Shown one piece after another: positions 32,901 through 38,649 of a stretch of DNA of 64,000 nt. Made by a program: the position numbers and the translations under genes. How positions within the stretch are numbered: position 1 is the stretch's first letter; the number at the start of each line of letters is the position of its first letter. The notes under the pieces were generated by a model, which worked only from the letters and a program-made list of their open reading frames with translations, had not been told where the DNA came from and did no database searches. This DNA is from Nitrososphaerales archaeon (lineage in GTDB: Archaea > Thermoproteota > Nitrososphaeria > Nitrososphaerales > UBA213). The stretch lies in contig CBDAOC010000016.1 of assembly GCA_965197925.1 (NCBI GenBank), positions 86,386-150,385 on the forward strand, read 5' to 3'.

Positions 32901-35900
32901 TAAGCTCAATATACTCTTGTCCAGTCTCCGCCATCATAGGGTCGATTTCGTCGGCAAACTCCATTCCCATAGTCGGATCTCGTAATCTAGCATCATTAAC
33001 ATCTGGTAGAAAATCATAGTAAGAAGCAACGGGCTGCATACCCAAATCATCCCAAGATCTGCCTACTACATCCTGCGCACCAAATCTACCAAACTGTTCT
33101 GGTAGCATACCAGAAAGAATATTCCATAATGCTCCTGTCTGCTCTACATCCAGCCTATTATAAAGATCCATAACAAACTGCAAATCCTTATTATTAGGAT
33201 CTCTATACATTCTTTCCATTAGCTCACCCGCAGGAACTTCAAGCTCACCACGAGATAAACCAAGCATCTCAGTAATACTACCAGGGCCCTTCAATGGCAA
33301 CTGACGCAAAGCATTACCCCAGAAACGACGCACACGATCTTCAATAGCTTGAGGACTAAGAACACCACCTTCCAATTTACCACTAACCCAAGTATCCTCT
33401 TCCTTAGTAGCAGCACGCACCATACCACGTCCACCTAGTCCAGCTGCTTCACCACCCTTACGCAAATCCCAAACTACTTTACCTTCAAAATTAACTCCAA
33501 AATTACGAGCAGTTAAATCTAAGTCGTGAGATACATTGTATCCAACAACATCCGTTACACTACCAACAATATCATTAAGTACACCAGCTTTAACATCATT
33601 TAATGATAGAGCAATATGTTCCACACTTCCATCATCGTTAATAATCTGTGCACCCCAGTAACCAACGTTAGCACGTTCACGGCCACGAACAAGTTTCTTA
33701 TAGTCGTTTTCTACGTCAAAAATAAGAATACGACGACGCTTCATAGCATGAAGACGAAGTTGCTCAGGGGTAAGATCACGATCCAAAGATCCACGTACAC
33801 TTTGTAGCATTCCACTAGGAGATACAGTAGTCTTTTGAACATCTAAAATGCCCTCTGGAGCCTCTAAACCACGAGCTAAACCTTCCCAATCAAATCCTGA
33901 TAATGTAGGATCCTGAATAATCTCACTCAGTGTACGGCCACCAATTATTCTTCTAGTAATCTCCTCAGCTTGAGACCACTCATCAATACCCAACCGTCCT
34001 ACACCAAATAGCCCCGACTCATATAAACTAGTCTGACCAACTGTAGCACCTATTGAACCTTGGTAACGCAATGGCCCAGCAGCTTCTGCAATAGCACCCA
34101 TCTGTACATCTTGAATTTCTTGAAGAGCTTTGAACTCTCCCTTAATCATCTCACCAATATGATAGGCCGCACCACTAGCACTTTGCTGACGACGTACTAC
34201 ATATTCTTTAGCTTGTTTAACTCCAGCAGCAATACCACCACCAAACTCCAAACGTAATGCAGGTTGAAAGTCATCAAATGACTCAAAATAAGACTCATAT
34301 GCACTTCTATCTAGAAGTTCTAAAATCTCATCAGAAATAGCAGTATTAAAACCTTTACGACGACCAGCACTAGACTCGGATACAGCTACTTGCATAAGAG
34401 CAGCAGCATAATCTTGAGGCATATACCCTTGATTAACGGCCTCACGTAAACCTTGATTTACGACATCAGATTGAGCAGTAGTAAGTTTATCACCCTCTAC
34501 AACACCAGCATATAAAGGACTACGATAACGATTATGCAATCCACTAGACATTGTAGTAGCACGACGAGCTATCTGTAGCAAACGTGTATCTAATTGCTTA
34601 GTCATAGCACTACGTGAACCCTGGAATAGAATGCTCTGAACATTTTCAAAGACACGGGATTCCAACAGTGCATCCTTACGAACATTAGCAATATCTAAAC
34701 TAGTATATTCATAACGAACACCAGCAGCTATAGGAGAACTAACTTCAGACAAGTATTCTTCAAAGTCACGCTTCAACCATGGATACTCTTCAATCAAATG
34801 CTTATCCAAAGAACGGCGTGGATTCGCCTCTAACCACTGTCTAATTTCATTCTTAATAGCCTTTTCAGCTACAACAGAAGAACCTCTAAATCTTGTTAAA
34901 GCATCAAGAACATCAGAGAAAACACCACCAGCAATATCGCTATCAACACCAGAATGCGTTAGCAATCTCATGTAAACATCAATTTTACCAATGTTACCTT
35001 TCTCACGATTGAACTGAGTAATTCTACGAATATTAGTTGGCCCATGCTCAGTTAGTCTCAATGGACTACCACTCATAGGAAGATCAGTAGGATTAAATCC
35101 AACATTACGTGCTTGTCCACTACGTACATCACCAAAATTCCATCTAACTAATTGATTACCAGTTTGAATCTCTGTATTTGTTACATCTATAGCTTCGATA
35201 CGTGTAGTTTTAGTAAATTTATCAGCATCAACTTTACTTATTCTACGAACAAGACCAGCACCTACGCCTTGAGGATCTCTACCAATAGGAAGAAAATATT
35301 CCCACTGTTTACGATTATTCATACTCTTTAGTAAAAATGTCAAAGCATGGTCATCAGCATCAGAACCCTCTGTACCACGAATAAATTCCCATGTAGCAAC
35401 ATCTTTTTCATGCGGAGCAAGACCAATATATCTACCACTATCATCGAAAATAAGTTTTACATGATCTTGGCTTTCATAAGTTCCTTTGGTAAAAAATTCA
35501 GCTGGAAGCAGACGCCCATACACAGCCTGCAAAGCTCCAGATGGTGCCATACCAGTACCACCCCGAGCAACGGCCTTACCTACAGTAGAACTATACAAAC
35601 GAAATCTTGATGTAGCATACGCGCCTCTCTTCATAGCTGCAGACATAAATGGATTTTCCTGAGAATACCTTTCAGAAATCTCATCATAATACGACATTGC
35701 AAACTCTTCATCATAATTAAATGACTGACCCTCATCTAATCTACGACTCATTTCACGTTGTGTACGTAATTGTGCAATAGTTTGCATCTCTGCTTCTGAT
35801 GGTTGATCATTAGCAAACATAGAACGAACACGTTGCCATTCAGCTCTACGCATACCACGATACGCAGGCTTAATAATTCTCTTTACAAGATCACGACCCA

Positions 35901-38649: not shown

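Follow-up and report, generated by a model that had tools for sequence, protein, structure and literature searches.

The closest described counterpart of the system examined here comes from Thermus phage P23-45, where an RNA polymerase is fused to the tail tape measure protein and accompanied by a free paralogue, an arrangement that was shown experimentally, and where the fusion protein gp96 measures 5,002 amino acids (PMC10770324). As far as the account of that system goes, accepted families of two-barrel polymerases often share no sequence or profile similarity with one another (PMC10770324). In QDE-1, the conserved residues follow one another in the order D709, R738, K743, R962-x-P964 and D1007-x-D-x-D1011, and the description of this enzyme, within the scope that it covers, calls eight residues, the D-x-D-x-D motif among them, invariant in all two-barrel polymerases (PMC2919709). 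In the literature that we searched, tape-measure-fused polymerases are described only for Thermus phage P23-45 and its kin. Here we analyze a candidate from a 64,000-nucleotide stretch of DNA (hereafter the window; positions 86,386 to 150,385 of contig CBDAOC010000016.1, assembly GCA_965197925.1), which forms the terminal 64 kb of a phage contig (C16) of 150,385 bp in a bin of 20 contigs and 2.9 Mb classified as a Nitrososphaerales archaeon. The candidate is a conserved module inside P0001, an open reading frame (ORF) of 4,902 amino acids in the tape measure position. We estimate, with a probability of roughly 0.55 and from sequence comparisons, that the module is a very diverged single-chain RNA polymerase of the two-barrel kind, carried in the virion and accompanied by two paralogues outside it. 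An earlier interpretation made from the letters alone (the sequence-only reading) had proposed a tape-measure-fused virion RNA polymerase at this place, and had quoted the P23-45 precedent correctly (PMC10770324).

The module covers approximately residues 525-1505 of P0001 (window 34135..37077, minus strand). Its bounds were drawn from the matches of its relatives, and because a free paralogue of 950 amino acids is colinear with it over nearly the whole of its length. A full HMMER search with residues 550-1535 as the query against 1.84 billion representatives recovered six relatives at E≤1e-3, four of them giant proteins of 2,144-7,174 amino acids and the other two fragments. The giant relatives match at their own residues ~470-1,610, and query residues 4-985 of the 550-1535 piece are covered. 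An additional relative with 76% identity and a retained DxDD motif, P0015 (2,321 amino acids), came from a word-indexed search. Judged by these matches, a small family of giant tail proteins shares the module as a conserved unit, placed near the N-terminus and never at it, and the start near residue 525 of P0001 agrees with the internal placement that the sequence-only reading had described.

The residues that could form an active site are strongly conserved. We compared an alignment of five tape-measure-type sequences that are 29-40% identical to the query (A1) with a merged alignment of nine rows that also includes relatives of the free paralogue P0002 (A5); the window coordinates of the motifs, all on the minus strand, were calculated by hand from the residue numbers. 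The candidate barrel B aspartate, D767, stands in a Thr/Ala-Asp-Ala block (36349..36351), and the Asp-Ala pair (D767-A768) is invariant in 5/5 sequences of A1 and 9/9 rows of A5. K832 (36154..36156), a lysine followed by a hydrophobic strand, is invariant in A1 and in all nine rows of A5 and pairs with K406 of P0002. Q908, in an Asn-x-x-Gln block (35926..35928), is likewise invariant in A1 and in 9/9 rows of A5. The acidic loop D1097-x-D1099-D1100 (35350..35361), a candidate metal site between predicted strands, is also invariant in A1, and its DxDD pattern is found in 6/6 tape-measure-type sequences; it is followed after 24-26 residues by R1124-x-P1126 (35272..35280), which is invariant in A1, with P1126 kept in 9/9 rows of A5. 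Further invariants of A1 are S873-L874-K875 and a Gly-Gly-x-Gly-x-Ala-Pro-Ser block at residues 1030-1037, and the basic residues that precede the acidic loop are R1029 (Lys in one of the five sequences) and R1046. All five blocks of the sequence-only reading (D767, K832, K875, Q908 and D1097/D1099/D1100) were found at the residues of P0001 where it had placed them. The order of the invariants, namely Asp 767, Lys 832 with its strand, Asn-x-x-Gln 908, a basic residue and the acidic loop, is that of a barrel B followed by a barrel A. Furthermore, the loop is flanked by hydrophobic stretches in a strand-strand-loop-strand-like pattern, which resembles the surroundings of the DxDGD motif in P23-45 gp96 and gp64.

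The first free paralogue, P0002, is a protein of 1,104 amino acids encoded on the plus strand (60427..63741) and a candidate non-virion polymerase. Its family has five members in public data, as compared with six of the tape-measure type, and is represented here by alignment A2. A whole-length hhalign comparison of A1 with A2 gave E 3.6e-4 over 373 columns, with DxDD paired to DxDD, and the value improved to E 1.8e-5 (score 44.0) for regions cut around the loop, with scores of 11.8-18.3 for one reversed and 12 column-shuffled controls. The significant half begins ~40 residues before the DxDD motif. Within it, D646-x-D648-D649 of P0002 (62362..62373) is aligned with D1097-D1100 and K668-x-P670 (62428..62436) with R1124-x-P1126, both being invariant in 4/4 sequences. 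As a positive control, P23-45 gp96 and gp64 were compared with the same build and four sequences each, which gave E 3.6e-6; the evidence for paralogy between the module and P0002 is therefore of the same order as that for a known pair. The alignment of the module with this gene, on which the sequence-only reading had staked its proposal, is thus significant by profile. Its claim that the blocks recur colinearly in the 1,104-amino-acid gene holds for the DxDD half, but not for the N-terminal half (E 0.24), where K875, invariant in the tape-measure family only, is replaced by Asp in the P0002 family and D767 has no unequivocal partner (one alignment pairs it with D265, two others with D359). A direct BLASTP search of the module against P0002 was not significant (best E 0.18).

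The second free paralogue, the closer of the two, is an ORF of 950 amino acids without a Pfam family, located on the plus strand outside the window (contig 42335-45187; L004:4335-7187) and linked to the module by both profile and BLASTP matches. It alone stood out among eight further large ORFs of the contig, all without annotation, that were screened with the merged profile. Residues 471-909 align with columns 545-1001 of A1 (hhalign, 406 columns, E 7.6e-5; reversed control score 17.3), and the N-terminal residues 23-50 match columns 6-33 weakly (E 0.045). BLASTP against the module returned two colinear pieces with E 0.002 and 0.007. This paralogue likewise has a DxDD loop (residue 492) with Arg-x-Pro after it, a Lys-Gly and strand at the position of K832, and a Gln aligned with Q908. 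The acidic loops of the families are paired by hhalign and, for the 950-amino-acid paralogue, also by BLASTP, and the DxDD pattern is invariant in 11/11 sequences of the three paralogue families (six of the tape-measure type, four of the P0002 type and the 950-amino-acid paralogue). By sequence homology, the genome carries three copies of the module, one fused within the tape measure protein and two free. Where a single non-virion paralogue had been proposed, two were found, with hhalign E-values of 1.8e-5 (P0002) and 7.6e-5 (the 950-amino-acid protein).

Relatives of these proteins are scarce. Searches with tblastn of the module and of P0002 against 50,697 phage records gave no match, neither A1 nor A2 had relatives in IMG/VR, the JGI metagenomes or the GTDB genome contigs, and the 950-amino-acid protein had none in IMG/VR. 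A relative was found in 0/400 further genomes of the class to which the bin belongs. Among longer proteins searched with A1 only P0001 itself and P0015 were recovered, and among proteins of near length nothing was found at E≤10.

The identification of P0001 as the carrier of the fused copy is based on its surroundings. P0001 is an uninterrupted ORF on the minus strand (23941..38649) and lies in the tape measure slot, because the genes for the large terminase (56241-57806), the portal (54533-56257), protease and capsid proteins and the major tail protein (39359-39937), all of them on the minus strand, are located upstream, and two large fn3-rich tail proteins are encoded downstream on the same strand. 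The gene slot, the great size, the internal repeats and a Gly-rich run are all as in tape measure proteins, and there is a weak PHROG tape-measure match at residues 2844-2934 (E 0.0074). On these features, P0001 is the tail tape measure protein and would be present in the virion. The Gly-rich run consists of ~14 tandem 15-bp units coding for Gly4-Pro near the C-terminus (window ~24410-24625, minus strand), and five repeats of ~55 amino acids are located just N-terminal of it, at residues ~4330-4600. A hydrophobic stretch rich in Ala and Gly before the module (residues ~160-215; window ~38005-38172, minus strand) could be membrane-inserting.

Yet another region of P0001, at residues ~1630-1900 (32950..33762, minus strand), follows the module and resembles DEDDy exonucleases. 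Asp-x-Glu (residues 1645-1647), Asn-x3-Asp and Tyr-x3-Asp are invariant in 6/6 sequences, with the order and spacing of the Exo I, II and III motifs, and the Exo III region weakly resembles the exonuclease subunit that the phage encodes elsewhere (window 5231-5953; hhalign E 0.028). The region had no Pfam or PDB match. The earlier statement that the polymerase is followed by an exonuclease has the motifs and the weak alignment behind it, but no annotated family or structure, and we consider a DEDDy exonuclease identity plausible from the motifs.

The comparison with P23-45 reveals both likenesses and differences. As in gp96, a conserved module of ~1,000 amino acids is part of a tape measure protein of ~5,000 amino acids, and free paralogues are encoded in the early region. 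As in the P23-45 enzymes, there is extremely little overall resemblance to cellular polymerases, an Asp-rich loop stands between hydrophobic stretches that are candidate strands, and a Gly/Thr-Asp-Gly/Ala block precedes a Lys-Gly/Ala strand by 38-65 residues in most copies; in P0002 this distance is 47 or 141 residues, depending on whether D359 or D265 is chosen. In contrast to these enzymes, the loop reads DxDD here rather than D-F/Y-D-G-D, so that the DxDD spacing, which the sequence-only reading had asked to be checked in these enzymes, is absent from gp96 (D779-F-D-G-D783) and gp64 (D326-Y-D-G-D330), with the P23-45 pattern in 4/4 sequences each. Likewise, Arg-x-Pro comes after the loop here but ~37 residues before it there, and the module is internal, from about residue 525, whereas the P23-45 polymerase occupies the very N-terminus, with membrane segments following later. 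There are two free paralogues here as compared to one, and an exonuclease-like region follows the module. The phage itself is AT-rich and unrelated to P23-45: its large terminase is less than 30% identical to that of any phage record, and the best 12 of 289 records include no Thermus phage, which agrees with the different lineage that the sequence-only reading had assumed.

Similarities to other systems are more distant. YonO of the Bacillus prophage SPbeta and the eukaryotic RdRP QDE-1 are, like the module, single chains of ~1,000 amino acids in which a conserved Asp, basic residues, an Asn-x-x-Gln-like block and an acidic loop come in a comparable order, as the sequence-only reading had noted; unlike these enzymes, the module has no match to Pfam RdRP or PHROG YonO-type families at E-values up to 10. 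The injected virion polymerase gp50 of phage N4 is T7-like and has another fold. In crAss-like phage phi14:2, gp66 is an RNA polymerase that is packaged in the virion and injected (PMC10770324). The likeness to gp66 and gp50 is by functional analogy only, in that a polymerase would enter with the DNA to serve the first genes, and these two are capsid or cargo proteins rather than parts of a tape measure protein.

We read the module as a polymerase because one copy is fused to a virion protein and others are free, because no other polymerase was recognized among the ORFs that were scanned, and because this combination fits the P23-45 scheme. With regard to the scan, neither an RNA polymerase nor a sigma factor was found by Pfam at E≤1e-5 among 70 ORFs scanned in the contig's first 86 kb, or by PHROGs among 30 ORFs of the window.

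Several results weigh against this reading. Pfam and PHROGs searches with whole proteins, pieces and all nine members of A5, at E-values up to 10, returned no polymerase family, and sequence and profile searches of the PDB with the module, P0002, A1, A2 and A5 returned chance-level matches only (best E 0.098). Across Pfam, PHROGs and the PDB, the best E-value was 0.0013, and the matches were to unrelated families, none of them an RNA polymerase. Comparisons by hhalign with the families of P23-45 gp96 and gp64 gave E 0.22-0.73, the merged profiles gave E 0.3 and 0.43, and archaeal RpoB (13 sequences) gave E 0.15 and 0.6; one non-significant gp64 alignment paired DxDD with DYDGD and was given no weight. 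Look-ups in the ESM Atlas provided no usable match. AlphaFold2 models reached a mean predicted local distance difference test (pLDDT) score of 47.0 with five sequences and 46.6 with the merged nine-sequence alignment, with values below 50 in the core, and Foldseek searches of the PDB with the two models, together with VIA-align, gave nothing meaningful; the fold searches are empty because the models are unusable in the core. The two double-psi beta-barrels that the sequence-only reading had predicted for such models were accordingly not seen.

Furthermore, the motifs depart from the canonical arrangement. The third Asp of the loop is located at +3 and not at +4 in 11/11 sequences, so that the D-x-D-x-D loop of the two-barrel enzymes is absent; three acidic residues are retained in another spacing, and position +4 is occupied by His/Lys, Gly or Ser. 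The conserved Arg-x-Pro expected ~40 residues before the loop was not found either. The upstream basic residue is R1029 in the module and R617 in P0002; the tape-measure family has Arg/Lys-Gly-Gly at this place, and one of the four P0002-type sequences lacks the Pro. In each of the three families, an invariant Arg/Lys-x-Pro instead follows the loop at a distance of 19-26 residues. No second conserved basic residue was identified within 15 residues of K832, and of the eight universal two-barrel residues about five can be placed in the module. The N-terminal halves of the module and the paralogue families, with the D767, K832 and Q908 blocks, are colinear without being significant (E 0.23-0.29), and the resemblances in motifs involve short stretches that were singled out post hoc. 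Of the original claim of a tape-measure-fused virion RNA polymerase, the slot, the conserved residues and the free paralogues have stood, while no comparison returned the two-barrel fold or tied the module by sequence or profile to a recognized RNA polymerase. We have therefore not filed the module as a member of a two-barrel family, and consider that it most likely works like one.

The lack of any family, profile or fold match to a polymerase, the poor models and the absence of the canonical DxDxD and Arg-x-Pro arrangement would all be expected if the module were a part of the tail lumen or the ejection apparatus, serving, for instance, to escort DNA, to form a membrane channel or to counteract defence, with the free copies being related intracellular factors and the loop binding a metal or a partner for some purpose other than polymerizing nucleotides. 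Tape measure proteins do frequently carry extra enzymatic or effector domains. We nevertheless regard this explanation as unlikely, albeit one to be taken seriously, since it does not account for two full-length free copies in the early and middle gene region, nor for invariant Asp, Lys, Arg and Gln residues in the two-barrel order. It would also leave a 150-kb phage with 28 transfer RNA (tRNA) genes and its own replication genes without a recognizable transcription enzyme or sigma factor.

The same loop, and the upstream strand that ends in Asp-Asp, would suit several metal-dependent folds, and the module might then be another Mg-dependent enzyme acting on nucleic acids, such as a Toprim-like topoisomerase or primase, a nuclease, or a PolD-type two-barrel DNA polymerase, and not an RNA polymerase. 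The DEDDy-like region after the module points in this direction, as such a pairing is more usual in DNA polymerases, and so do the best Foldseek matches of the second model, which were chains of type IIA topoisomerases (E 0.5-2, template modelling (TM) score <0.1). These matches are far from significance and come from an unusable model, and a type IIA topoisomerase identity was set aside at E≥0.5 and TM<0.1. In Toprim domains, the corresponding distance is 40-75 residues, whereas the Asp-Asp strand precedes the DxDD loop by only 18-28 residues here. Since the phage already encodes a family A DNA polymerase, a primase, a clamp and a ligase, we judge an enzyme of this type to be improbable. The displaced third Asp, and the two of the eight universal residues that were not found, could also be taken to indicate that the module is a former two-barrel polymerase that is now non-catalytic and serves in DNA binding or as a length spacer, with only one free paralogue active or with the host polymerase performing all transcription. 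However, the same non-canonical loop is invariant in three families and in relatives that are 29-40% identical, which points to selection that maintains precisely this loop and speaks against decay, and a pseudo-enzyme seems to us the most improbable of these explanations.

If the module is indeed a two-barrel-like polymerase, its metal site would be the D1097-x-D1099-D1100 loop, with D767 and K832 contributed by the other barrel. By analogy with P23-45, the tape measure protein would leave the tail along with the DNA at infection, and the fused enzyme would transcribe the genes that enter first, which could correspond to a block of genes rich in GC at third codon positions (GC3) that includes the gene for P0002. 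P0002 and the 950-amino-acid paralogue would then run early and middle transcription.

This block (GC3 0.45-0.75, plus strand) is found at window 58833-63741 and continues at contig 1-20300; ORFs whose GC3 exceeds 0.45 are concentrated at contig 145.2-150.4 kb and 0-20 kb. In a circularly permuted genome, these two stretches would make up a single plus-strand block that starts beside the terminase end. P0002 is its largest gene, with a GC3 of 0.70 as compared to a contig median of 0.315 (152 ORFs) and 0.22 for the tape measure gene. The contig carries 28 tRNA genes after removal of overlaps between loci (seven of them in the window, 99-10869), all on the plus strand and located at contig 24.4-97.3 kb, and none in the GC3-rich block. 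A block free of phage tRNA genes and with a codon usage of its own would suit a class of genes expressed first, a polymerase gene among them, and it may represent a separately expressed pre-early or early class. No promoter-like repeats emerged when the early block was searched for them, and the search turned up only ribosome-binding sites and terminators composed of a hairpin and a T-run. The terminators are near-identical GC-rich hairpins with T-runs between small early genes, at 941-977, 1462-1499, 5322-5356, 6234-6270 and 6427-6463 of L002 (contig 1-20300), and two more terminator-like sites, at L002 3134 and 3502, have a different hairpin.

In its fullest form, the hypothesis is a programme of three polymerases on a new two-barrel branch, which would be characterized by a rearranged active site, with a D-x-D-D metal loop, an Arg-x-Pro after it and possibly a permuted barrel A. 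The copy in the tape measure protein would be injected together with a proofreading-type exonuclease and would transcribe a pre-early block, distinct in composition and independent of the phage tRNAs, in which the second polymerase is encoded, and the third would serve the later genes. We put this complete scheme forward as tentative and, taken with all its parts, as doubtful.

The phage also has replication genes for a family A DNA polymerase, a primase, a bacterial-type (DnaN-like) sliding clamp and a ligase. Its auxiliary genes, which are numerous on the contig and include window 1488-2906 and 11876-12835, code for a Ro60/TROVE protein, a class I tRNA synthetase of the Trp/Tyr type, a nicotinamide phosphoribosyltransferase, a ferritin-like protein, ThyX, ribonucleotide reductase, a macro-domain protein, NADAR and an ATP-dependent ligase. 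The signals on the contig are of the bacterial type, including AAGGAG ribosome-binding sites and hairpin terminators in addition to the DnaN-like clamp. The sole RpoB of the bin, in contrast, is archaeal. The stated contamination of the bin is 5.37%, the phage contig may be mis-binned, and we lean toward a bacterial rather than an archaeal host.

The family described here is tiny in public data and would escape every standard annotation library. Searches of the literature returned no paper in which DxDD is joined with RNA polymerase and phage. If the DxDD loop is catalytic, it would break a signature that is called invariant in two-barrel polymerases in the description at hand (PMC2919709), and motif searches for such enzymes would widen. 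The internal position of the module, the two free paralogues and the attached exonuclease-like domain characterize this lineage. If our interpretation is true, a second, unrelated lineage of phages injects a polymerase that is fused to its tape measure protein, which would make this strategy one that recurs among phages and not a peculiarity confined to thermophiles.

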